A stretch of DNA of 11,178 nucleotides from IMG/VR virus record IMGVR_UViG_2671180710_000027; one strand, 5' to 3'. Below, piece by piece: positions 1 to 11,178 of this stretch; the first letter of the stretch is position 1; every line of letters begins with the position of its first letter. The notes under the pieces were generated by a model. It did not search any database. It saw only the letters and a program-made list of their open reading frames with translations, and was not told where the DNA came from. Position numbers and translations under genes: made by a program. The stretch comes from a virus (lineage: Duplodnaviria > Heunggongvirae > Uroviricota > Caudoviricetes).

Positions 1-603
1 CTATTTCTTCTCTGTAATTTTTACACTGTTTTCCAACTGCTTGATGCTGACCTGCGGGGTCGGCAACTCCTCAGGCATGGTTCCGCCAAGTTCCTGAATG
101 GTTTGCCTCACCTTGCTACCCACGTCAAAGTGTGTGGTATTAGCTTGCTGTGCTGCCTCAACCAATTGTTTGTTATGTTCTTTCAACTCATTTCTCAGAA
201 ACAGACGCTTTTCGTCTTCACGAAGTTGCTTAAATGCTTCATCGTCAGCAAGCTCCTGCCGTCGGGTCTGGATAGCAAAATAAGTCTGCCCTGCCGCAAT
301 GACCGGTTTCGCGGGGTCGCCGTTTTGTACTACCAGGTAACAGGCATAGCGGGAGAGTACGATGTCTTTTAATGCTCTTTTGGCATTTGAGCCAATTTTG
401 ACCATATCGAGGATCTCCTCGAAATGGTCATCAATTGTGTGACCACTGTTCTCACAGGCCTCTTTGGCGCGCGTTAATACAGGTATAAAGTGACGATACA
501 CTGAATAACCCAGTAGTTTCCCAAGTTGTCTTGCTGACCATTGTTCTGCTCCGTTTGCATTAATCAGTTTTATCTCTTCAAAAGGTTGATGATGTTCGTT
601 CAT
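1..603 (-). CDS. dinD: DNA damage-inducible protein D (DinD)
   Basis: ORF-track protein (MNEHHQPFEEIKLINANGAEQW...) recognised from memory as DinD. Complete, with TAG stop at 1-3. Preferred start is the ATG at 601-603 (GGAG about 8 nt upstream) rather than the in-frame ATG at 613-615. A canonical LexA box lies about 45 bp upstream. Confidence 0.8.
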   Translation of the reverse strand: MNEHHQPFEEIKLINANGAEQWSARQLGKLLGYSVYRHFIPVLTRAKEACENSGHTIDDHFEEILDMVKIGSNAKRALKDIVLSRYACYLVVQNGDPAKPVIAAGQTYFAIQTRRQELADDEAFKQLREDEKRLFLRNELKEHNKQLVEAAQQANTTHFDVGSKVRQTIQELGGTMPEELPTPQVSIKQLENSVKITEKK

Positions 604-646
604 TGCCCACTCCATGTGATATCGATTGCAAAGAAAGTAAATCTGT

Positions 647-789: not shown

Positions 790-1016
790 GTGAAGGCTGA
801 AAAGTAAGAATTAGTGTTACGAGTTACTCAATTGAATCTGAATGTTTAGTATGTGCGTTAATTGCTTTTATTATGCGGTTCTTTGGGTTGGGTTAATTTG
901 TATATGTACACGCGTATGTACACATTTTTCGTGAGTGCTCAATAAAACGGGATACGAAAGCCGTTTTTATGTGGCTTTAAAGTGGGTTTAGAAATGGCGC
1001 AATTGTGCTTTTGGCG

Positions 1017-1098
1017 TGCTGGTGGCGGGGGTCGAACCCGCATACATGATCAGCCTGTACAGGCTGGCACCGACTCTACCCGTTGAGCGTACACCAGC
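1017..1098 (-). other. tRNA-like sequence (degenerate; probable attachment-site relic)
   Basis: Minus-strand read gives a perfect 7-bp acceptor stem (GCTGGTG / CACCAGC), a perfect T-arm (GCGGG-TTCGACC-CCCGC) and a D-arm resembling GCTCAGTTGGTAGAGC. The anticodon region is a 5-bp stem with a 6-nt loop inside the palindrome AGCCTGTACAGGCT, spacers are oversized, and no CCA is encoded. Confidence 0.5.
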
Positions 1099-1120
1099 AA
1101 AAAAGCGATGAGGTTGTTGG

Positions 1121-1206
1121 CTGCTGGTGGTGGGGGTCGAACCCACATAAACATATGGCCCGTTAGGGTTTATGCCGCTTTACCGATTAAGAGTACACCA
1201 TACAGC
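1121..1206 (-). other. Second, more degenerate tRNA-like sequence
   Basis: Shares the 24-bp 3' terminus with the first copy (plus strand 1017-1040 versus 1122-1145, one mismatch) and a T-arm GTGGG-TTCGACC-CCCAC. The 5' acceptor strand is disrupted (GCTG-TAT-GGTG) and the middle is AT-rich and diverged. Confidence 0.4.
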
Positions 1207-1280
1207 CAGGCAAAATAGTAATTATGCGTTATGCGCGGGTAAAGTCCGTTTTGTCTGGTAGCACCAGATGAACGGGTATC

Positions 1281-1350
1281 ATTATTTCACCTGATTTCAC
1301 GTGATTTCGCTTAATTTCACAAAAATCACCGTCTTTCACCTTCTTTCACA
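1281..1350. repeat. Seven direct repeats of (A/T)TTTCAC phased at exactly 10 bp
   Basis: TTTCAC-like hexamers start at 1285, 1295, 1305, 1315, 1325, 1334 and 1344. The array lies about 80 bp inside the tRNA-like relics. Confidence 0.7.
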
Positions 1351-1480
1351 AAAAACAAATTATCATTAAAGCGCCTTTCGCTCTCTGATGCGTTTTGGTG
1401 TTTTGTGGTGTCTGTGATGCCCTGAAAGGGGATTTTTGCGATAGCGGCGCAAATATAACGGTTGCTGCTGGTATCTGTGG

Positions 1481-1888
1481 TTAGTCTTGCGTGATTTTAT
1501 TGGCGTGCTTCTTTCTAAGCCGCCGAATGATATCGTAAATATGGGTCTCGGATATCGCGTACTCTTTACGTAATGCCTGCAATTTTTCGCCGTTATCCCA
1601 CCTGTAGTAAATCTCGTATTCGCGCAATGCTGCGAAAAGTGATCTGCCTGTTGGAAGGTAAAGACTCCGCCCACCAGCATAGAAGGCGATTGCAGCAACA
1701 ACCCGCTTTGCGATTCTGAAAGCGTCTGCCTCCTCCATGCCATTACGGGTAAGTTCTGCCACTGAATGCGACACGATATCAGCAAGCGAATCACACCATG
1801 CATCACCTGGTTTATCTCCGCCGTCTATGTCATTCATGAATTTAAGCCGCTCGATGTCTTTTGGTACGTGATGGGTTTGCTCGTTCAT
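1481..1888 (-). CDS. Mor-family transcriptional activator
   Basis: 135-aa ORF. The C-terminal half (YLPTGRSLFAALREYEIYYRWDNGEKLQALRKEYAISETHIYDIIRRLRK) parallels phage Mu Mor (YIPRGQALDSLIRDLRIWNDFNGRNVSELTTRYGVTFNTVYKAIRRMRR, recalled). AAGAGG lies 7 nt upstream of the ATG at 1886-1888. Confidence 0.8.
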   Translation of the reverse strand: MNEQTHHVPKDIERLKFMNDIDGGDKPGDAWCDSLADIVSHSVAELTRNGMEEADAFRIAKRVVAAIAFYAGGRSLYLPTGRSLFAALREYEIYYRWDNGEKLQALRKEYAISETHIYDIIRRLRKKHANKITQD

Positions 1889-1977
1889 CCGGTAGCCTCT
1901 TGTGTTGGTGTATCTGGTCCTACCAGTTTAATTTAACGTCGCGATAAAACGATATACACGCACACATATCAGAAAGG

Positions 1978-2274
1978 CTAACCGACTGTTCCGGCTCTGT
2001 GCTTATTTCTGGTAGCTACGCCAGATTTTTTACATCTCCCTCCTATCCCCATTTCTGCGTAAGTGCGGTTTACTGCTTTCCTCAGGTCTGCGTAGTTCTC
2101 CTCTGGCGGCTCCGGTGGCCTCTGTGCCTTCCCGTAACACTCTGCCCTGCGCATTGCCACCCGTTCGCGTTCCCTGTCAGTCTCCACCAGCATCATCACT
2201 TCGGCCCATCGCGCCGCCGCTCTCCGGTAAAAGCCTTTCGACTCCAGTTCTTCCGCTATGCGGTCATGTACCAT
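1978..2274 (-). CDS. PerC-family transcriptional regulator (PerC/Pch-like)
   Basis: 98-aa ORF beginning MVHDRIAEELESKGFYRRAAARWAEVMMLV, recalled as the PerC family N-terminal signature. GAGGGGG lies 6 nt upstream of the ATG at 2272-2274. Confidence 0.65.
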   Translation of the reverse strand: MVHDRIAEELESKGFYRRAAARWAEVMMLVETDRERERVAMRRAECYGKAQRPPEPPEENYADLRKAVNRTYAEMGIGGRCKKSGVATRNKHRAGTVG

Positions 2275-2285
2275 CGTTCACCCCC

Positions 2286-2540
2286 TCAGAACGGAATATT
2301 GTCACCGCAGGGGTCATAACTTCCCGCTGGTGGCTGATTGCTCTGTGTGCCTGTGGTACTGCGTCTGCTCCCGCCTGGACGCGTCGCCCGTGCACTGATT
2401 ATGCTGTCCGCTATGACCTGATAACCCTGCCGCGTTTCCCCGTTCTGTCCGGTCCACTGGCTTACCTGCATCGTGCCGGATACGCTGATTACGTTGCCTT
2501 TCTCATATCCTGCCAGTCGGTCGGCCTGTCTGAAAAACAC
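2286..2540 (-). pseudogene. 5'-truncated single-stranded DNA-binding protein (ssb remnant retaining C-terminal tail)
   Basis: The 84-aa ORF aligns to the C-terminal half of SSB (SQWTGQNGETRQGYQV against RKWTDQSGQDRYTTEV) and ends ...GDNIPF, like the SSB DDDIPF tip. The frame opens with GTG at 2538-2540 directly after an in-frame stop at 2547-2549. No SSB N-terminal OB-fold sequence was found in any frame upstream. Confidence 0.6.
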
Positions 2541-2865
2541 GCTTTCTTAAACAATGCCTAAAAGCCGATTTTATGGTGCTTTGAAACGGTTTTTAAAATG
2601 GCGCTCGTGGTGTACTCTCTGGCATTCAATGGCGCTCTGTGATGTGGCTGGTGGTATGTGGCCGCCATGCATAATGGGGCTGATTTTGTTCATGGCCCGG
2701 CAATGGGTGAGCATTTTTTACCATATTCAGGGTAACAATGGGCGAAAAAGTTCATTTCTGGCATGGCCTGAAATTCCATGCAGCCCGCGCCGCGTGTGCT
2801 CTTGCCGGGGAAAACGTCGCGGAATAATGACCGCACCCCACCTTATGGCGGTGCAGTCCCACGAA

Positions 2866-2934
2866 ATCCCGGTTATTTCCGTTTATTCCCGGATTAATCC
2901 CGCCTTTTCCCGCATTCTCCCGGCTGTTCCCGGA
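2866..2934. repeat. Seven direct repeats of TCCCG(G/C) phased at 10-11 bp
   Basis: TCCCG-type units at 2867, 2877 (degenerate TTCCG), 2887, 2898, 2908, 2918 and 2928, in a non-coding gap. Confidence 0.7.
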
Positions 2935-2956
2935 ATTAATCGCCGGGGTGTGGTGG

Positions 2957-3247
2957 TTATCTGGTGTGGTCGTAGTTCTGCCGTAGTCGTTCACCCTCAG
3001 CGCAATGACGCGGTTTTTTAACGCCGCTGGTAGCACAATGCGGGCAGGTCATGACGTGGCTGATATACGCATCACGGGCAGCCAGCCACGCCGCAGACGG
3101 GGCGCACATATCCGCCAGCGTCTGGCCGTTGCTGGTGGTGTTGTCTTCCGGCCATGTTTCGGACTGGTGCGCTTCCTGTAAATCCGGTGCAGGTAATGCC
3201 CGGATAAACTCACACAATGCATCCGGCAGGCTGAATAACTTATGCAT
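2957..3247 (-). CDS. Hypothetical small protein with Cys/His cluster (possible mosaic ORF)
   Basis: 96-aa ORF with ATG at 3245-3247 and no clear ribosome-binding site. Contains CPHC...HC. It carries an in-frame 34-bp segment (3101-3134) nearly identical to part of the helicase gene (4481-4514). Confidence 0.35.
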   Translation of the reverse strand: MHKLFSLPDALCEFIRALPAPDLQEAHQSETWPEDNTTSNGQTLADMCAPSAAWLAARDAYISHVMTCPHCATSGVKKPRHCAEGERLRQNYDHTR

Positions 3248-3670
3248 AAATCTGATGTTCTGAATCGCTGAAAACGTGCGTTTTATGGTGTTTTTTCGTG
3301 ATTTCTGCGTGTTCTGATGTGCTCATTTCGCTGTATCCCTTGTGTGGCGCGGGCTGCGCGTGTGTTTCGGTGTTCTTTTTTGCCGCCAGAAAACGGTAAT
3401 CAGGCATATAAACACGGCTGTAAGCCGCGCCGCGTCTGGCTTCGCGTGATTTTGTGCGCTAAAAAGTGCATTTTTGCCCTTAAAAAGCGTTATTCGTGAT
3501 TCACTGGTAAATGCTCCACATGCCGCGCCATTGCTGGGCTTTTCGCTATTCTGTGTGGTTTTGCTGTTTAACCCGTTTTGCACACTGAAATTGCCTTGCA
3601 TCCAGCGCCACGTAAGGGATTTCCGGGTTTTTATGGTGCGTTTTTTGCCGTGCGTAATATTGTGCAAGTT

Positions 3671-3913
3671 GGTGGGACTGGTGGGAACTGTGGGAACCGC
3701 CTAGAACCACGCGGCTTTCAGTGGTTCCCACCAGTTCCCACGGTGGCTTTTTGTGGGAACCGTGGCGGTTATTTTTTGTTCTCTGTGGTTCCCACCAGTT
3801 CCCGCAGAGTTCCCACTCAAAAACGAACAATAATCATACTGGTGATTTTATTATTTACTGATTTATATATGTTTTATTTTTACGGTTCCCACAGTTCCCA
3901 CCAGTCCCACCAC
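3671..3913. repeat. Iteron cluster with AT-rich core: candidate origin of replication (P4 ori/crr-like)
   Basis: About 11 copies of the octamer GTGGGAAC / GTTCCCAC in both orientations (3671-3698, 3724-3741, 3752-3761, 3789-3816, 3885-3910). They flank an AT-rich stretch at 3817-3884 and lie immediately downstream of the helicase gene. Confidence 0.65.
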
Positions 3914-3946
3914 TTTTTCAGTTTTTAAAAACGCAATTTTTGTTAA

Positions 3947-5785
3947 TTATTCATCAATTGCGAATAACAATGCATTCTGGTCGATGGCGTAAACGCGGTG
4001 TTTTTCCCCGTTAACGGAAACGCGTTTTGTGTATCGGCGTTTCCCGTCCGTGTCGCGGTCAACAATCGCGCCAGCATCATCAAGACTGGCCGCTATGCGT
4101 TTCAGGTCGTAGCCGCTGGCCGCCTCACATAGTGCTTCCGGTAAAAACCAGTAAACCCGGTCGCCGTTGCTCCCCGGTCGCCACCATCCGGCGCGGTTGC
4201 TTACTGGTTCGCTGTATGTGTTGCCCCCTTCAAAGCGTGAGGCATGGCGGGCGATAAACCCGGCGACGGCCCGGAGTATTTTCACGTCCTCCGATTGCCC
4301 CCGGCCACGATAGTCCGACCACGCAGCAAACATCGCTTTCACCGCCTCCAGTGCTTCGCCCTGTTTCCACGGCAGAATCCCGGCAGTTATCGCCATTTCA
4401 CCGGCCAGTGCGCACAGTGTGAAACGCGCGGCGGCGCGCGCCTCCTGCCCGGTGCTTACGGGGAATTGTTCGCGCAGTATGGCGTACATATCCGCCAGCG
4501 TCTGGCCGTTGCTGTCGGTGCTGGTGGTGTCACTTTCATTGCGGGAAATCAGCCAGCGCACAAACTCCGGCCCGGCGTGGCCGTAATGGGTGGCCGCATT
4601 ACCGCGCAGCGTTTCGGCAAATTTCCGGCCTGCTCCACGGCGTTCTGTGTCGTTGTCGGGGTTGTGGGGTAGTGCCATTCCGTGGAGGCAGTCAAACGCC
4701 CCGTAAAGCCGCTGTGCCGGAATATCCAGTAACCGCATTTCCTGCCCGGCCTTGATGCGCTGACCACCGCTTTCCATGTGTTTACCCACGGTCATTTCCC
4801 CTGTGGAAATAATCATGGTGCGCCATGTGTTGACCGGGCGGGCCATGCCGGACACCTTGCCACGCTGGCGGCCTGTTCCGTTGCCAAGCTGATAAATCAG
4901 CCCGCCAATATCTCTGGCCGGGGCTTCGCCAATTTCATCCAGTATCAGCGCGGTATCGTTCCGCATGGTCGCCAGCCCTTCAAGCCCGGTGCTGGTGGCG
5001 TTCCAGTTGCGTTTAAAGTTGCGGGGTTCTCCCCATACGCTACAGGCCACCAGCGCCCCCACGCTTTTCCCGCTGGAACTGTCGCCCATGAAATGAAATC
5101 CGCCGCTGTCCACATCAAGCAGCCACAGCAACGGCCCGGCGAGTGATGCACACACTGCCAGCATGGCTACCGGGTTTCCCCGGCATAATGCGGCCACGTT
5201 GTCGCGCCAGCCCTCCGGCGTTCCTGCGGTGGCGTACTCCTGTGAGCCTGCTTCTGTTGACTGAAACACCACATCACCATCACCGATAACCCCGCCCGGC
5301 ATGACAAACAGGGTCGGGGAGTGCCACCCGGTGGCCGTAGCCGCGAGCGCCCGTCGTTTTGGTGCTGACTCCATGATGTATTCGGTCAGTGCCTGCCGTT
5401 GTTTGTAGGGAATGGTAACGCCCATGCGCAGCAGCTCCTGTCGGAGTTCTCCGCCGTCTCCGGCGAGCATTTCCATCGGTGCGGCCCATTCCCGCCACTG
5501 GCCTGACGGCGTGAGAAAACGGAGTAATCGCCCGTAGTTTTCGTCTTTGCTGTCGCTGGTCATGGCGATAACCTCCAGCGGGGAACAGATAAACGTGTCC
5601 GTGTTGGTTGAGTCGCGCACGCCGTGCCAGTAAAGGCCGGGTTTCAGTATCTGGCCGCCGTCCACCTGTACATGCTGCGAATAAGTGGCGTAGCCCGGAC
5701 GTGCCGGGCTGACTTTGGGGTGTTTCTTGCGTGGTGGTTTTCGCTTCCCGGATGTGACCGGGGTTTTAGTGGTTGTCCGGGTCAT
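3947..5785 (-). CDS. Replicative helicase, SF3/P-loop NTPase (P4 alpha C-terminal-like, DUF927-type)
   Basis: 612-aa ORF with Walker A GDSSSGKS and Walker B LILDEIG. Its ATG at 5783-5785 overlaps the primase 3' end by 20 bp. Confidence 0.85.
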   Translation of the reverse strand: MTRTTTKTPVTSGKRKPPRKKHPKVSPARPGYATYSQHVQVDGGQILKPGLYWHGVRDSTNTDTFICSPLEVIAMTSDSKDENYGRLLRFLTPSGQWREWAAPMEMLAGDGGELRQELLRMGVTIPYKQRQALTEYIMESAPKRRALAATATGWHSPTLFVMPGGVIGDGDVVFQSTEAGSQEYATAGTPEGWRDNVAALCRGNPVAMLAVCASLAGPLLWLLDVDSGGFHFMGDSSSGKSVGALVACSVWGEPRNFKRNWNATSTGLEGLATMRNDTALILDEIGEAPARDIGGLIYQLGNGTGRQRGKVSGMARPVNTWRTMIISTGEMTVGKHMESGGQRIKAGQEMRLLDIPAQRLYGAFDCLHGMALPHNPDNDTERRGAGRKFAETLRGNAATHYGHAGPEFVRWLISRNESDTTSTDSNGQTLADMYAILREQFPVSTGQEARAAARFTLCALAGEMAITAGILPWKQGEALEAVKAMFAAWSDYRGRGQSEDVKILRAVAGFIARHASRFEGGNTYSEPVSNRAGWWRPGSNGDRVYWFLPEALCEAASGYDLKRIAASLDDAGAIVDRDTDGKRRYTKRVSVNGEKHRVYAIDQNALLFAIDE

Positions 5786-6809
5786 GCTCCATTTCCCATA
5801 GCATCAAATCGTTAAAGTCGGAAAGGTCTGGTGATGCACCGGGCGGCCATTCCGGGAATGTGACGTAACATCCGGCCAGCAATGCGGCTTCGTTGGCTGC
5901 TCTGGAACCGGGGTTGCCTTTTGATGCCCGGTCATCATCCCCGGCGATAACGAGAGATATGCGCGAGCCGTATCGTTCACGCAGCGCCATAGCCACATGT
6001 TTAAGGTTTCCCGCATTCATGGCACACACCACGGCCATGACGTTCCAGTACTGGAGAAGGGCGGCCCCGGTGGCCCACCCCTCACACACGTAAACGTCAT
6101 GTTCCGGCGCTTCCGGGGCCATCAGGTCAAAGCTCCCCATAACATGGAAAGCCCCCTGCACCTGACCATCACGGAGAAACATTTTTCGACCGTCCGGGCT
6201 GATAATCTGCACGTTCACCACTTCGCCGCATACGTTGTACAGCGGGACAAGCAAATCATTACCCGACTGATACAGATTGCCGGGCTGTAGCCGTTTTTTC
6301 ATGAGATAGGGATGAGAAGGGGTTGCCACCTCCGCCCGGCCAAGCAACTCAAAGGCCCGGCAGGCGGTCAGTTTCTGGCGCTGGTGGCGTTGTTGCTGCT
6401 CCCGCTGGCGGAGTCTGCCCGCCTCCTGTTCTGCGGCCTGTACCCGCACCCGTTGCGCCTCCCGTTGTTCGCGGGTCATTACATCAGGTTTGCCCAGTGC
6501 GGGCAGGCACAGCCCCAGCCTGTCCGCCACAATACGGGCGGCATCAGTCTGACGCACATTCCACAAATAAGCCCCCAGCGCCACAAGGTCGCCGCCGCTG
6601 TCCCCGGTGGCGAAGTCGTGCCAGCATCCGTCCACCAGCGAGACGAAAAAACTGCCCGCGTGACGGTCTGCACGTGTGGGGTTACGGCACACCCATTCAG
6701 TGGCCTGCCGTTTACCTTCGGGCAGCCATTCAGGAACAAGGATTTCCGCATGTTGTGCCGCCACTGCGGCAACGCTGCGGATTGCGTTAATCGTGGCTAT
6801 GTCACGCAT
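5766..6809 (-). CDS. TOPRIM-domain DNA primase (P4 alpha N-terminal-like)
   Basis: TOPRIM motifs VYVCEGWATG and LVIAGDDD. Preferred start is the ATG at 6807-6809 (GGGAGGG upstream, MRDIATINAIR...), not the TTG at 6885-6887 used by the ORF track. Confidence 0.85.
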   Translation of the reverse strand: MRDIATINAIRSVAAVAAQHAEILVPEWLPEGKRQATEWVCRNPTRADRHAGSFFVSLVDGCWHDFATGDSGGDLVALGAYLWNVRQTDAARIVADRLGLCLPALGKPDVMTREQREAQRVRVQAAEQEAGRLRQREQQQRHQRQKLTACRAFELLGRAEVATPSHPYLMKKRLQPGNLYQSGNDLLVPLYNVCGEVVNVQIISPDGRKMFLRDGQVQGAFHVMGSFDLMAPEAPEHDVYVCEGWATGAALLQYWNVMAVVCAMNAGNLKHVAMALRERYGSRISLVIAGDDDRASKGNPGSRAANEAALLAGCYVTFPEWPPGASPDLSDFNDLMLWEMEHDPDNH

Positions 6810-7116
6810 GTTGCCCGCCCTCCCTGATTTCCCCGGTGCGGCAGCGCCAGTTATACGCCTCCACAACCTCACTGAATCCGGCCACAAGTTCAGCCGTAAC
6901 AGCGATGGAATCGCCCAGGCTGCGTAGTTCGCCCATGCTGGGGTCGAGATTGTCGCCCATGCCGGAAAGCAGGCGGCCTGTGCTAATCAGCCCTTCAAGC
7001 AGTTTGCGGGCGCAGTAATCCGCATCATCAAACAGGGCGCGGGCTTCCTGTGCGTCTGCGTTTTTGATGGCCGCAACCAGTAGTTCAGGTATCCGGGTGT
7101 TATACATATCACACAT
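6802..7116 (-). CDS. Hypothetical acidic protein (104 aa)
   Basis: ATG at 7114-7116 overlaps the upstream stop in an ATGTGTGA junction, and its own stop overlaps the primase start in ATGCGTGA. No motif recognised. Confidence 0.55.
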   Translation of the reverse strand: MCDMYNTRIPELLVAAIKNADAQEARALFDDADYCARKLLEGLISTGRLLSGMGDNLDPSMGELRSLGDSIAVTAELVAGFSEVVEAYNWRCRTGEIREGGQHA

Positions 7117-7405
7117 GGCTTACCTCCCCGGCCTGCTGGTCGTAACACTCCATCAGTTCGGCCATACAGCCAATGAGGGCAGGGGCTGTCTGTAGAAATC
7201 CGGCTAATTGGCAGATCTCGTCTCTGGAATAGGTGATGGGGTTTTCGCGTAACTGGCTTCCCTCCAGTGCCTTACCAACAAAGGCAATCCCCGCCAGTAA
7301 ATTCACTCTGTGCCAGTCGGCATCAACGCGCAGAATCCAGTGGCTTTCTTCGTCCGGCATACTGCTCATGGCGGCTTTCATTGACTCACGCAGACAATCA
7401 CGCAT
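7109..7405 (-). CDS. Hypothetical acidic protein (98 aa from ATG 7403-7405)
   Basis: The ORF-track start at 7435 is a TTG. The ATG at 7403-7405 sits in an ATGCGTGA overlap with the upstream stop and has GGGGG 6 nt upstream. Confidence 0.5.
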   Translation of the reverse strand: MRDCLRESMKAAMSSMPDEESHWILRVDADWHRVNLLAGIAFVGKALEGSQLRENPITYSRDEICQLAGFLQTAPALIGCMAELMECYDQQAGEVSHV

Positions 7406-7862
7406 GGCGCGCCCCCTGACGAATACGGGCGACAAAAATCATATGCGCGTGCGGTAGCTGCGCGCGTGCTTCGCGTTCTGTTGCCGCCGTGACGGTAAAG
7501 AGCGAGGTTTGTTTTTCCTGGCACTGCATAAAGCGCCAGACAAAGTAAGGGCGTGCGAATACAGCCATGTGAAAGGCTCCTATGTTTGAGGTAAGGAGTC
7601 TCGCTACTACGCTGCTAAACGGGGTGGCGAGACGTAACGGGGTTAGCAGACTGGCAACATAGAAACCAGCGAGCGCAAAGGCTCCCCCGTCACGCCCCGC
7701 CATAATGCGGGTATGGGTAGGTTTACGGACACAAAAAAACCGCATATCGGAATGTAAGCGGCTGTCCGCTATGTTATTCAGGCTGCTAAACCCGGTCACC
7801 ATGTGGGTGACTCCGGCATCATACAGCCCGAAAGAAGAGGCGATCAACATGTTTTTAAGCAT
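7398..7862 (-). CDS. Ash/Icd-like family protein (long form 154 aa; possible short form 7398-7568)
   Basis: C-terminal 56 aa (MAVFARPYFVWRFMQ...HMIFVARIRQGARHA) is paralogous to the Icd-like protein upstream. The long start at 7860-7862 overlaps the upstream stop (ATGCTTAA). An internal ATG at 7566-7568 has GGAG 8 nt upstream, so the true start is ambiguous. Confidence 0.5.
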   Translation of the reverse strand: MLKNMLIASSFGLYDAGVTHMVTGFSSLNNIADSRLHSDMRFFCVRKPTHTRIMAGRDGGAFALAGFYVASLLTPLRLATPFSSVVARLLTSNIGAFHMAVFARPYFVWRFMQCQEKQTSLFTVTAATEREARAQLPHAHMIFVARIRQGARHA

Positions 7863-8052
7863 GGCTCACCCCCTGAGCCGGAACGCGGCCAGCAAAAAGC
7901 AACACAAAATCACGCGCCAGCATACGGCGGGCGGTTGTTTCGTCGGGTGCGTTGACGGATTCGCGGTGTGGGCGGTCGTTCAGATCGGAACGGCGAACGG
8001 CCAGAAAGTGAAAGGTAAATTCAGGGTGTAACGGGGTTGGGGTCGTAGCCAT
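7855..8052 (-). CDS. Host cell division inhibitor Icd-like small protein (65 aa)
   Basis: MATTPTPLHPEFTFHFLAVRRSD...ARRMLARDFVLLFAGRVP matches the recalled Icd-like pattern. The ATG at 8050-8052 has AGGAGG 8 nt upstream. The 201-aa ORF-track version adds a Pro/Gly/Arg-rich N-terminal extension that I consider non-coding. Confidence 0.6.
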   Translation of the reverse strand: MATTPTPLHPEFTFHFLAVRRSDLNDRPHRESVNAPDETTARRMLARDFVLLFAGRVPAQGVSHA

Positions 8053-8481
8053 TCTGGCAGCCTCCTTTTGCAAATTTAAGGAGTCACCGCCTGAGTTTCC
8101 ACGCTCATAAGGGGCGGTGACGCTGGCGGGGGTGGAAATACCGGCGCAAAAGGAAACCGGCCAGCCTTTCGGCTGCCCCACCAGCGCCACCATAGATACA
8201 GTGCGGGCCTTGCCGCTGTTCATGGTTGCGCGATGGCACGACACAAAAAAAGACGCTGGGCGCGTCTGTGTCGCCTTTTGCTCATTAAACGGGTTTCCAC
8301 GCCCGGCTGGTGGATTTACACCAGCCGGGGAAATATAACGCCCACCAGCGATGGCAGGCAAGCAATATTTGCGGTTGCCGCCCATTCTGTGGGGCGTGTG
8401 GTGGTTGTTTTGGGCGTGAGAACGCCCCGGCCCTGTTGCGGGCCTTTCTGGCATTTTCATGATTAAAATTCTCTGACGGGG

Positions 8482-8688
8482 TTAATTGCGCGTGCTGGTC
8501 GTGCCTTTGCGGTCAGCGAGCCACTGGCGGATAGCGGAAACATCAAAGCGGCTTACGCCATCGCCCAGCTTATCCGGGCTGGGGAATTTACCTTTTTTAA
8601 CCCAGTTCCATAGCGTCGATTCGCTAATCTGAAAATGGTTTATCACCTGTGCCGGGCGCATATAGCCGGATTTGGGTAAGGTATCCAT
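8482..8688 (-). CDS. alpA: AlpA-family phage regulatory / excisionase-like HTH protein
   Basis: 68-aa ORF with an HTH (MRPAQVINHFQISESTLWNWVKKGKFPSP) followed by RFDVSAIRQWL, typical of AlpA/Xis-type proteins. AGAGG lies 9 nt upstream. Confidence 0.8.
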   Translation of the reverse strand: MDTLPKSGYMRPAQVINHFQISESTLWNWVKKGKFPSPDKLGDGVSRFDVSAIRQWLADRKGTTSTRN

Positions 8689-8739
8689 GATTAAAGCCTC
8701 TTACAGTGTTTTGGTGCTGAATGGAGGCTATACGCAAGG

Positions 8740-8773
8740 CAAGAAAAAGTAAAGGCGACTAAATTTAGTCGCC
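8740..8773 (-). terminator. Intrinsic terminator downstream of the orphan gene
   Basis: Perfect 20-bp palindrome GGCGACTAAATTTAGTCGCC (8754-8773), followed on the minus strand by TTTACTTTTTCTT. A T-run also follows on the plus strand, so it may act in both directions. Confidence 0.5.
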
Positions 8774-8857
8774 ATTTTTATTGGTGTTTTCGGTTTCTTT
8801 AAAATGCTGGCATATGTATTAAAAAAACGCTTTTATGCTTTCAATTTCATTAAAAAA

Positions 8858-9811
8858 TTATCTTTTTGCTTTTGCGTTTCCGCCCAAAATTTTCCATTCA
8901 TTGGGTAAGCGTCTGGCATCAGATAATATTTTTGCTATTCGTCCCGCGTCAGGTGTTGGGGTGGGATTGCCATCCCAGAACAGATAACCGTGTTTCTCTA
9001 TGGCTTCGGCATGTGATTTAAGTGTCTTGCCAACATCTTTAGGGAAGTGATACGCCACGTACAGGGCAGCCGCGAGAACCTTTTCACGTTCCAGCGCGAA
9101 TCGCTCCACACCGCCGTGTATATCATGCTTTTCCTGATTCCTGTCATCTGTCGGTTGTTCTGTGCGCTGGTAGCCGGGCCTTTGTGCAAGTATTTTTTGC
9201 ATGACCATCATTTCTGAATCGGTAATGCGCAAATTCTTTTTTTCCGGGGCGTTTATCCGGCGTGAGCCGCCACGTGGTGTAAAGGTTGCTGTAACTTTGG
9301 ACAGTGAAGGGGTATCGGTGTACGGTTTTAATGTGAATGTGTCCTGTGCGTGAACGCGCGAGAACTCGGCGTAAGGTACAGTCCATAAGCCATACAGGAG
9401 AACATCCGATACAACCATAAGTTTCCCGTCATGTACCTGCGCGTCACTATGGTTGCTGTCAAAGTAGAACCCGGATTGTGAGTATTGATGGTAAACATTT
9501 CTCCAAATCAATATTGATTCAGGTTCGTTGTCATTGGGGAAAAGCCTGAGTTTCTCCCCTTCTTCCGGTTGTAGTAATTCAGGTGGGAAATAATCGTTTG
9601 TTGCTGGCGCTGAAATACTGGCAATGTTCCACGGCTTGGCCGGATATCCCCACTTGTCGTAATCCGTGTAGCTTTGGCGGTTTATGGAACTTTCCGGGCC
9701 GAAATCAAGTGCGATTTTTATTGTCCCTTTAGCCCATTCAGTCAGTATTTTTTTTTGAGTACACCCCAGTATGCTGGCGGCTGTATCAATAGGGTATGTG
9801 TTTTCATACAT
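8858..9811 (-). CDS. Hypothetical protein (317 aa), AT-rich cargo gene in the integrase-alpA slot
   Basis: Long uninterrupted ORF with ATG at 9809-9811. Composition is markedly more AT-rich than its neighbours. The N-terminus has an HTH-like stretch (IDTAASILGCTQKKILTEWAKG). No catalytic motif recognised. Confidence 0.6.
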   Translation of the reverse strand: MYENTYPIDTAASILGCTQKKILTEWAKGTIKIALDFGPESSINRQSYTDYDKWGYPAKPWNIASISAPATNDYFPPELLQPEEGEKLRLFPNDNEPESILIWRNVYHQYSQSGFYFDSNHSDAQVHDGKLMVVSDVLLYGLWTVPYAEFSRVHAQDTFTLKPYTDTPSLSKVTATFTPRGGSRRINAPEKKNLRITDSEMMVMQKILAQRPGYQRTEQPTDDRNQEKHDIHGGVERFALEREKVLAAALYVAYHFPKDVGKTLKSHAEAIEKHGYLFWDGNPTPTPDAGRIAKILSDARRLPNEWKILGGNAKAKR

Positions 9812-9906
9812 GGTTTACGTTACCTTTGACGCTACCTTAAAAATAAACCGGGGCAGGCGGTAAGGTTTCCCGCTTTTCGCGCCGTCGCGCTATCCCCGGT
9901 ATGTTT

Positions 9907-11178
9907 TTATTTTGCAATCGCTTTTGTGATGGGGGTTACGTTGTATTCATCCCCCTGTTCCAGAGCCACCAGCAGGTCGGCCCATAACTCCAGAGCGTGG
10001 CGGCGTTCATTGAAATACTGATGGCGGTTATAGATACCCTCAACGCCTTTAATTCGGTGGTTCAGGCAGCGTTCCGCCACTACAGGGTCTACCCCAAGCG
10101 CGGCAAGGTGAGTTCTGGCTGTGCGTCGGAAATCGTGAACGGTAAAACCCGGCACACCAGGCATTTCCCGGCGAACCTTAGCCAGCGCAACGGGCAGGGT
10201 GCTTTCCTGTATGTGTGGAATCATGCGCTGTTGCATTTTGCGGGCCGGAAGCACCCAGCGGCTACCGCCTGAAATGCTGTGTAATTCGCGCAACCATGCC
10301 ACCGCTGGTGGCGGTAGTGGGATATCAATGGCATCCCCGTTTTTAGCCCGTTCGGCAGGGAGTCGCCATACAGCACTATCTAAATCAAATTCATCCCACT
10401 GTGCGGCGCACAACTCCATTTTTCGGCAGCAAAGGCAAAGTATCAGTTTCATGGTGAGTTCATTCTCACGGCTGAATCCTTTAGCTGTGCGCATGGCCTG
10501 AAAAAAATGAATGAGTTCATCACGGGTTAGCCATCGGTCGCGGCTTTTTTCAGCCCCACCAGCATCTGATAACTCAAAAGCAGCGGCGGGGTTTGTTTCC
10601 AGTGCGTGGCGTTTGATGGCGTAGTCGAATATCCGTTTAGTCCATCGCAAAACATCATTGGCGACTGTTGGCGCTCCGCGGTCAATAATGCGCTGTAGCA
10701 TTGCGTCAATATGGCGCGGTTTAACGTCTTCGACTTTCAGGCTGCCAATCTGAGGGTTGATATCTTTGTCTATGCGGCGGCGGAGAATATCGGGATGTTT
10801 CCAGCGGGGTAGTATTTGCCGTTCGTAGTATTCGGCTGCCAGTTCTGACACGCGAAGGGCGTTTTTTTCTTCCTCAATCCGTGCCAGTGCCGCCGCTTTT
10901 CGGGCCTGCTTTTCTCCGGCCACGTCATGGCCCAGCGCAACACGGGCGGCCAGTTCTTTAACGGTGGCGCGGGCTTTACTTAGTGACAGGTCGGAATATG
11001 AGCCGATGTGCATAGCACGTTGTTTCCCGGCCATCCGGTAACGATAGCGCCAGAATGGGGCGTTATATTTTTCAGGGAAGCACAAATACAGGCCGTTACC
11101 ATCGGCGCGGGCATCAAAGCGTTCCCCGGCCTTTATCCACGCCTTTATCTGAATATCCGTTAACTTCGCCTTTGTCAT
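9907..11178 (-). CDS. int: Tyrosine site-specific integrase, P4 family
   Basis: 423-aa ORF whose N-terminus (MTKAKLTDIQIKAWIKAGERF...GNGLYLCF) resembles the P4-type arm-binding domain. The C-terminus carries the catalytic motifs HDFRRT and LNH...GIYNRHQY. The start codon is at the window edge. Confidence 0.9.
   Translation of the reverse strand: MTKAKLTDIQIKAWIKAGERFDARADGNGLYLCFPEKYNAPFWRYRYRMAGKQRAMHIGSYSDLSLSKARATVKELAARVALGHDVAGEKQARKAAALARIEEEKNALRVSELAAEYYERQILPRWKHPDILRRRIDKDINPQIGSLKVEDVKPRHIDAMLQRIIDRGAPTVANDVLRWTKRIFDYAIKRHALETNPAAAFELSDAGGAEKSRDRWLTRDELIHFFQAMRTAKGFSRENELTMKLILCLCCRKMELCAAQWDEFDLDSAVWRLPAERAKNGDAIDIPLPPPAVAWLRELHSISGGSRWVLPARKMQQRMIPHIQESTLPVALAKVRREMPGVPGFTVHDFRRTARTHLAALGVDPVVAERCLNHRIKGVEGIYNRHQYFNERRHALELWADLLVALEQGDEYNVTPITKAIAK

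Follow-up and report, generated by a model that had tools for sequence, protein, structure and literature searches.

The Pseudomonas element phiAH14b is reportedly packaged in the capsid of phage phiAH14a. Escherichia coli MP1 carries a phage-inducible chromosomal island (PICI), EcCIMP1, which has the P22-like phage Kapi1 as its helper, circularises and excises only when Kapi1 is present and is transduced by it (PMC11773190). The PICMIs, or phage-inducible chromosomal minimalist islands, are, in the part of their description cited here (PMC10803314), minimal satellites of Vibrionaceae which are packaged as concatemers in helper capsids and carry no capsid-remodelling genes. Here we describe an island from the IMG/VR virus record IMGVR_UViG_2671180710_000027, a stretch of 11,178 nucleotides which is referred to as the window. 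We consider it reasonably probable that the window represents nearly all of a minimalist, helper-dependent phage-satellite-like island that is akin to P4 and to the PICIs of Gram-negative bacteria, with a construction like that of EcCIMP1 and phiAH14b. The island belongs to a little-described branch of the known P4/PICI satellites, with yicC as target, no packaging genes, a duplicated antisense-RNA immunity and an end module of possible Mu-like affinity.

All credible genes between positions 1017 and 11178 were found on the minus strand, both in the list of open reading frames (ORFs) and in the RefSeq annotation of the identical locus. An earlier reading made from the letters alone (the sequence-only reading) had described co-oriented genes for integration, excision control, replication and regulation, and all four functions were confirmed with the integrase (Int), AlpA, a toprim primase and a DUF927 helicase (Pfam, PHROGs and NCBIfam) as well as iterons. 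Starting from yicC, the order is int, int-alpA RNA, hyp317, AlpA, two regulatory modules, hyp98, hyp104, toprim primase and DUF927 helicase, followed by a 700-bp non-coding iteron stretch, hyp96, a TCCCGG array, a truncated ssb, PerC, a Mor-family gene, an ATTTCAC array and two tRNA-like elements (Table 1). The same reading had seen nothing resembling a packaging module, and indeed no ORF gave a capsid, portal, terminase, Sid/Psu/Delta, Rpp or lysis match in Pfam, PHROGs, NCBIfam or PADLOC. Neither was there a match (Pfam, PHROGs) to the capsid morphogenesis gene of E. coli Type A PICIs, nor a small terminase homolog or Rpp-type packaging redirector on the island, and the unassigned ORFs showed no PADLOC match that would indicate a defence function. 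Several features by which PICIs have been recognised (Fillol-Salom 2018, PMC6092414) were present, i.e. an integrase at the end, AlpA downstream of int (here with the hyp317 gene between them), a primase-replicase followed by an iteron region, and no structural or lysis genes.

The window was 100% identical to the E. coli chromosome NZ_CM143724.1, where dinD is annotated over the left 600 bases of the window. Beyond the start of the integrase gene this chromosome continues with 187 bp and then with yicC, rph and pyrE. In the empty site of K-12, dinD adjoins yicC directly with nothing in between. A three-way alignment of this empty site with both junctions placed the insertion within the last codons of yicC, and the island extends from window position 841 to ~11364 as a discrete insertion of ~10.5 kb in the yicC 3' end. 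It is flanked by a degenerate 18-22-bp repeat, of which the right copy supplies the new stop codon of yicC. Extending the sequence to the right, as had been proposed, thus revealed the target, and the right end lies outside of the window as claimed, by only ~190 bp. A complete prophage continuing past the integrase had been named as the finding that would speak against an island, but only ~190 bp separate the integrase gene from yicC and therefore the element is not a prophage. The start at 1017 has to be corrected to 841, as 1017 is the edge of a tRNA-like element. The TATGTACAC repeat pairs located inside both island ends are probably arm-type sites of the integrase. We also considered integration into a tRNA gene and rejected it: ARAGORN reported no tRNA, K-12 has none at its empty site, and the island itself contains the tRNA-like elements.

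Table 1. Features of the yicC island, with positions in the 11,178-nt window unless stated otherwise.
Feature	Position	Strand	Basis and remarks
Left att core GTTACTCAATTGAATCTG	823..840	none	degenerate copy of yicC 3' end, island DNA from 841; three-way alignment
Pair of TATGTACAC repeats	903..929	none	direct-repeat family D9; matching pair between int and yicC, just outside the window
44-bp imperfect direct repeat	957..1000, partner 2561-2604	none	35/44 positions identical (local alignment)
tRNA-like element 1	1017..1098	-	Rfam tRNA 35 bits vs gathering score 29; acceptor, D and T arms intact
tRNA-like element 2	1125..1200	-	in tandem, more degenerate; Rfam tRNA 20.3 bits, below threshold; repeat families D3, D4
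Phased 10-bp repeat array 1 (ATTTCAC/CTTTCAC), ~6-7 units	1284..1349	none	Tandem Repeats Finder; conserved in sister islands
Mor/C-family transcription activator, 135 aa	1481..1888	-	Pfam Mor 3.7e-23; PHROG 'late transcriptional activator'
PerC-family regulator	1978..2274	-	Pfam PerC 2.8e-35, domain intact; frameshift flagged by RefSeq
5'-truncated ssb	2286..2540	-	Pfam SSB, C-terminal part only; annotated as partial
Phased 10-bp repeat array 2 (TCCCGG...)	2867..2941	none	Tandem Repeats Finder; conserved core near distal end, also in L003
hyp96, small Cys-containing protein, 96 aa	2957..3247	-	conserved core gene; no family match (Pfam, PHROGs, NCBIfam)
Putative origin	3670..3912	none	inverted sets of GGTGGGAAC iterons around AT-rich stretch, directly 3' of helicase gene; repeat families D5, D11
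DUF927 replicative helicase or initiator, 612 aa	3947..5785	-	Pfam DUF927 7e-83; NCBIfam similarity to Cch helicase of staphylococcal cassette chromosomes (SCC)
Toprim primase, 347 aa (RefSeq start)	5766..6809	-	Pfam Toprim_3; PHROG DNA primase 5e-50
hyp104, conserved helical-hairpin protein	6802..7116	-	small ORF upstream of primase
hyp98, small protein	7109..7405	-	annotation; only 12 representative relatives
Immunity module 2	7398..7847	-	promoter-like site 7847-7818; isrK-like RNA 7733-7811; C4 RNA 7620-7707; icd2 7398-7568, 56 codons
Immunity module 1	7855..8361	-	promoter-like site 8361-8332; isrK RNA 8246-8325; C4 RNA 8110-8197; icd1 7855-8052, 65 codons
AlpA-type helix-turn-helix regulator or excisionase	8482..8688	-	Pfam HTH_17 and Phage_AlpA
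hyp317	8858..9811	-	317 aa, no family match; N-terminal MerR/excisionase/TerS-type winged helix, then unmatched beta domain and helical domain
int-alpA RNA motif (RF02996)	9835..9900	-	Rfam 64 bits vs gathering score 35.8
Tyrosine integrase, yicC-targeting type, 423 aa	9907..11178	-	Pfam Arm-DNA-bind_3, Phage_int_M, Phage_integrase; start codon is last window base
Right att copy GTTATTCCACGTTCTGAATCTG	outside window, locus L001 23367-23388		includes new yicC stop codon

Comparison with the known satellite families, which the sequence-only reading had recommended, revealed an architecture like that of EcCIMP1 and phiAH14b and relatedness to P4 and PICIs. In EcCIMP1, int, alpA, (ant), isrK/C4 with ash/icd, small ORFs and toprim plus DUF927 follow one another in the same order and orientation, PerC is located at the far end, and capsid and terminase genes are also absent. 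However, EcCIMP1 comprises 20 kb at tRNA-Thr with a fused primase-helicase, P22-type ejection proteins and a second alpA, whereas the island described here is half the size, is inserted in yicC and contains two C4 modules. phiAH14b (KU708005) shares int, a protein of ~318 aa, alpA, a toprim primase followed by a DUF927-type helicase, and a C4 RNA (89 bits), but is 16.8 kb long, has more small ORFs and other cargo, and encodes a 318-aa protein that is not homologous to hyp317. With P4 the island has in common the P4-type architecture of its integrase, a regulator of the AlpA/Vis type, immunity by an antisense RNA of the C4/CI family, a size of ~10-11 kb and small ORFs immediately upstream of the primase; it lacks homologs of sid, psu, delta and epsilon (Pfam, PHROGs) and a P2-type cos. 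Compared by domains, Toprim_3 is shared with P4-type primases, but primase and DUF927 helicase are separate genes on the island, as against the alpha protein of P4. PICIs of the EcCICFT073/OI-51 type resemble it in the succession of int, alpA, pri-rep and an iteron/AT-rich origin, in the co-orientation of all genes and in the accessory pair ssb-perC, and differ in that the island is devoid of Rpp, a lambda-type cos and the capsid morphogenesis gene. The PICI descriptions PMC6092414 and PMC6739421 do not mention a C4 RNA-icd module. As far as the cited part of PMC10803314 describes them, PICMIs also have an integrase, AlpA, a primase and no capsid-remodelling genes, but are located beside fis in vibrios and have virulent helpers.

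Rfam detected two full-length C4 antisense RNAs above threshold, with 82 bits in module 1 and 74 bits in module 2, as well as isrK in module 1 (63 bits). Target-like c4-a1b1 matches at 8286-8338 (module 1, 40 bits) and 7775-7824 (module 2, 29 bits) were both below the gathering score of 46.7. According to promoter scan and alignment both modules have an identical layout, consisting of a sigma-70-like promoter, an isrK-like RNA with terminator, a C4 RNA and a short icd preceded by a Shine-Dalgarno sequence. Complementarity exists between the C4-1 loop UCCUUUUGC and GCAAAAGGA at the ribosome-binding site of icd1, and between the C4-2 loop UUUCUAUGUU and AACAUAGGAG at that of icd2. Neither target occurs in the leader of the other module, which gives two specificities. 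These pairings were read as short exact complementarities because RNA duplex energies calculated on whole leaders were uninformative. The immI operon of P1 and the immunity of P4 follow the same antisense logic. By analogy, the C4-icd modules are plausible resting-state switches for the replication operon directly downstream. The likeness to immI of P1/P7 includes the C4 RNA, an icd whose ribosome-binding site is complementary to the C4 loop, and the sub-threshold a1/b1 target-like matches; on the island, however, the module is part of a satellite-like element and is duplicated with two specificities, and in the KY203 variant ant is found upstream rather than downstream of the C4 modules. The 'Ash/Icd-like' ORFs of 154 and 201 aa that had been proposed earlier could not be upheld, as they mostly overlie the isrK and C4 RNA genes and the real icd ORFs are those of 56 and 65 codons. 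A Pfam Phage_ASH match in the region 7398-8460 also overlies isrK and C4 RNA genes, and the proteins grouped as 'Ash' may to a large extent be translated conserved RNA genes.

Iterons flanking an AT-rich stretch are the layout of the PICI origin described in PMC6092414. This layout is matched by positions 3670-3912, which by analogy would be the replication origin of the island. Homologs of the DUF927 helicase were found on plasmids of 6-15 kb, and 57 out of 61 plasmids with a homologous helicase were non-mobilizable. The occurrence of such homologs on small plasmids is consistent with autonomous replication of the island. A Pseudomonas aeruginosa element with the same layout of int, regulator, primase and DUF927 has been deposited both as phage vB_Pae_U10 (10.2 kb) and as plasmid NZ_KR106191.1 (11.2 kb), and the two entries match the island helicase at an identical 38.0%. 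This double deposit suggests a free circular form of such an island. Altogether, the island can probably excise and replicate itself.

Relatives were found at the same site in other genomes and other genera. A short form of ~8.2 kb, without window positions 1001-2560 and 7420-7858, occupies the same yicC site in other E. coli. In Serratia marcescens the yicC island is syntenic over int, hyp317, alpA, C4-icd, the small ORFs, toprim, DUF927 and hyp96 (aa identities: int 86%, hyp317 43%, alpA 73%, toprim 77%, DUF927 81%, hyp96 47%). An Aeromonas yicC island is partly syntenic (int 77%, hyp317 44%, alpA 75%, C4/icd region) and encodes a fused primase-helicase. C4 and int-alpA RNAs are conserved in both genera, and isrK is conserved in Aeromonas. 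Between the E. coli variants and Serratia, dN/dS was 0.07-0.21 for int, alpA, primase, helicase and hyp317, and the core genes are under purifying selection across genera. The replication core was also found, with 97% identity, behind a different integrase at tRNA-Ile, and a sister family combines a RepA-type helicase with the same end module and an intact ssb. By these combinations, integration, replication and end modules have been exchanged between related islands. A sister island in E. coli STEC17-183 (L013 12047-21965) encodes int, alpA, two C4-icd modules, a RepA-type helicase, ssb, PerC, Mor and the tRNA-like elements. It sits inside mdtP and splits this gene, while in other strains the same type adjoins mug at tRNA-Ile; the position in mdtP is off-target and indicates recent movement. 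We therefore have a modular, recently mobile element family and not a decaying prophage.

The yicC-type integrase adjoins yicC also in Serratia and Aeromonas, and hyp317 always accompanies it. The RF02996 motif is located between int and the hyp317 gene and not directly before alpA, and it has the same position in E. coli, Serratia and Aeromonas (L009, L017, L019), so that the motif is tied to the int-hyp317 pair. As hyp317 varies together with the int-alpA RNA and the yicC type of integrase, it belongs more probably to the module for integration or regulation than to the cargo; it may also serve to recognise DNA for packaging. Variable cargo had been considered since the proteins that occupy the corresponding slot of L003 and phiAH14b are not homologous to hyp317; this assignment was dropped because in Serratia and Aeromonas the hyp317 homologs accompany the yicC integrase. 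A viral structural protein was rejected as well, as hyp317 had no match in BFVD. For AlpA, a function as regulator or excisionase would be expected by analogy with EcCICFT073 and EcCIMP1 (PMC6092414; PMC11773190).

The following life cycle might be envisaged for the island. In the resting state each C4 RNA would pair with the ribosome-binding region of its own icd gene and, as in P1 and P4, this pairing would silence the downstream operon of small ORFs, primase and helicase. A cue from a helper phage would raise AlpA, which would activate the operon and, together with Int, excise the island. Primase and helicase would then replicate the circle from the iteron origin into multimers, and these would be packaged by helper terminase into helper capsids without capsid remodelling, as in PICMIs and EcCICFT073. 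For helper dependence, packaging and transfer we infer such a course from the architecture described above.

Several observations weigh against a satellite. Identities with the two most similar satellites are low (EcCIMP1: Int 31%, DUF927 29%, toprim 30%, AlpA 25%; phiAH14b: helicase 37%, toprim 46%), and the island has 3/5 of the PICI components and 2-3/7 of the P4-like components of SatelliteFinder (PMC10085698). Of the P4-like features it has int, alpA and antisense RNA immunity but not psu, delta, sid and epsilon. The yicC 3' end is also the target of the conjugation-mobilised islands MGIVflInd1, MGIVmi1 and the SGI1-like IEEcoMOD1 (PMC8409611). Neither a helper nor, on the island, a pac/cos site or helper-sensing component was identified; scans of the window gave two loose matches to lambda cosN, not above chance, and none to P2/P4 cos at up to 3 mismatches. 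The attP-junction pattern of a free or circular copy was not found in IMG/VR or metagenome contigs, and the IMG/VR relatives (L014-L016) appear to be integrated islands. The integrase type occurs in only ~15 of 5426 complete E. coli genomes. Finally, there are signs of decay, all of them at the island periphery: a truncated ssb, a perC flagged as frameshifted, and the missing ant gene, which the KY203 variant has. Such decay, the rarity in E. coli and the lack of a recognisable packaging signal could also be explained by a cryptic, immobile P4-like remnant that is inherited vertically and perhaps retained for its PerC/Mor regulators or for phage exclusion. E. coli carries many P4-derived cryptic elements, which would fit this explanation. 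OI-51, for instance, has been described as one (PMC3378721). We nevertheless consider a remnant to be distinctly unlikely, as the core genes are intact with dN/dS of ~0.1, synteny of the minimal gene set extends to the yicC site of Serratia and in part to Aeromonas, modules are exchanged between islands, and the sister island lies off-target in mdtP. Of the two possibilities left by the sequence-only reading, a minimal satellite or a degraded element, the former is thus favoured by synteny, dN/dS, the mdtP sister and the related satellites, and the latter applies to the periphery only.

The island might alternatively be an integrative mobilizable element moved by a conjugative plasmid or an integrative and conjugative element, like MGIVflInd1, MGIVmi1 and IEEcoMOD1. 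Although no transfer gene is present, this explanation stays alive because yicC is a site common to several conjugation-mobilised island families (PMC8409611); SGI1-type islands likewise replicate after excision, and DUF927 helicases are found outside phages as well, for example in SCC cassettes and plasmids. We assign it a low probability, since no relaxase, MobI, mating-pair or transfer gene was detected in Pfam, PHROGs and NCBIfam scans (no search was made for an oriT mimic or for AcaCD/SetCD boxes), the regulatory core is of phage type (C4 RNA-icd as in P1/P4, AlpA, and ant in the KY203 variant), the closest characterised relatives are phage satellites, and the plasmids with a homologous helicase are for the most part non-mobilizable, as given above. 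Equally improbable in our view is an integrative plasmid-like episome that excises and replicates itself and spreads passively by generalised transduction, vesicles or transformation with no dedicated helper. The complete integration and replication set, the absence in Pfam and PHROGs of anything visibly touching a phage, the small plasmids driven by relatives of the helicase and the Pseudomonas relative deposited both as 'phage' and as plasmid would all be in line with such an episome. On the other hand, an AlpA switch, icd and immunity by antisense RNA are the equipment of elements whose life cycle is linked to a phage, and EcCIMP1, with the same layout, excised only with its helper present (PMC11773190).

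If the island is a satellite as we propose, elements of this kind go uncounted, as current satellite finders require packaging or capsid-remodelling genes; with the component counts given above, current tools would miss it. The conserved 8-kb yicC element, the RNA switch that it shares with EcCIMP1 and phiAH14b and the exchange of modules together suggest that minimalist satellites exist beyond marine vibrios and that a P4-related group has antisense-RNA immunity as its shared core. The integration site shared with conjugation-mobilised islands points to an exchange of integrase modules between phage-borne and plasmid-borne elements.

The distal end of the window copy consists of a 1.56-kb module that is bracketed by the 44-bp repeats and absent in short-form islands (BLAST map). 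Immunity module 2 is absent from the short form as well. The ssb gene is intact (136 aa) in the sister islands L012 and L013, and its truncated copy in the window is a recombination scar. From these patterns, the window copy appears to be a long-form recombinant which acquired the end module from the sister island family with intact ssb, along with a second, hetero-specific C4-icd module. ARAGORN rejects both tRNA-like elements of the module, which RefSeq labels tRNA-Tyr (element 1) and tRNA-OTHER; folding showed an aberrant anticodon arm in element 1 with a 5-bp stem and a 6-nt loop. This 'anticodon' arm varies between copies, further ones being located at L004 4241-4500 and L006 3001-3071, and KY203 has a third, partial copy. 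The elements could be a processing signal, a decoy or an integration target. The phased repeat arrays in non-coding DNA are candidate protein-binding or packaging sites, but resemble neither known cos/pac sequences nor the ends of Mu-like phages.

The end module also revealed an association with a Mu-like phage. The best phage match of the Mor-family protein (48%) was the single Mor/C-family gene, in C position, of a Mu-like phage in Shiga-toxin-producing E. coli (STEC), and identity with Mu protein C was 31%. In this phage the gene is located directly upstream of the lysis genes, which is the position of Mu C. A comparison of the tRNA-like element with 50,697 phage records gave matches to this Mu-like lineage only (86% identity); the phage copy lies antisense between F-like and G-like head genes and differs only in the central arm. 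No other nucleotide similarity between island and Mu-like phage was detected. To examine co-occurrence we used a chimeric query, which puts island carriers at the top and gives the count of matching places. The Mu-like prophage segment was present in 7/7 long-form genomes, in 0/8 genomes that carry the short form or just the integrase, and in ~5% of all genomes, counts which are uncorrected for shared ancestry and STEC background. The module was present, in whichever island, in 14 genomes, of which at least 11 had the prophage segment, one lacked it and two could not be scored. The island carrier 2012EL-2448 harbours a Mu-like prophage of ~39 kb in hofC (L020 4941-43967) which carries an inserted IS1 as well as an internal stop in a Gp27-family gene, and this prophage copy may therefore be defective. 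Mu ends or a pac site on the island were rejected, as the end motif TTTGATACC of the Mu-like phage is absent from the window and the ATTTCAC array is unrelated to it. It is a tentative and rather doubtful idea that the long form has adapted to a Mu-like transposable prophage as helper, with the Mor/C protein switching on late (head, tail and lysis) promoters as P4 Delta does with P2; a part of the tRNA-like element and the phased repeat array in this interaction would be speculative. If true, this would be the first satellite of a transposable phage to our knowledge. The association represents a speculative, testable lead toward the helper.

Among the small proteins, hyp96 belongs to a narrow family of 9 clusters. 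hyp98 and hyp104 had no family match in Pfam, PHROGs or NCBIfam, and a fold search with hyp104 retrieved generic helical hairpins only. A segment of 43 nt with 91% identity is common to hyp96 (3101-3143) and the DUF927 gene (4481-4523), with ...SNGQTLADM... as the encoded peptide in each case, and may be the scar of a recombination. Next to the island, dinD (window 1-615) is shortened, with 200 aa annotated compared to 274 aa in K-12 and STEC711, and the BLAST map showed a deletion of ~210 bp inside the gene relative to STEC711. The N-terminus of DinD matches the Bro-N domain and PADLOC candidate-defence models (PDC-S13).

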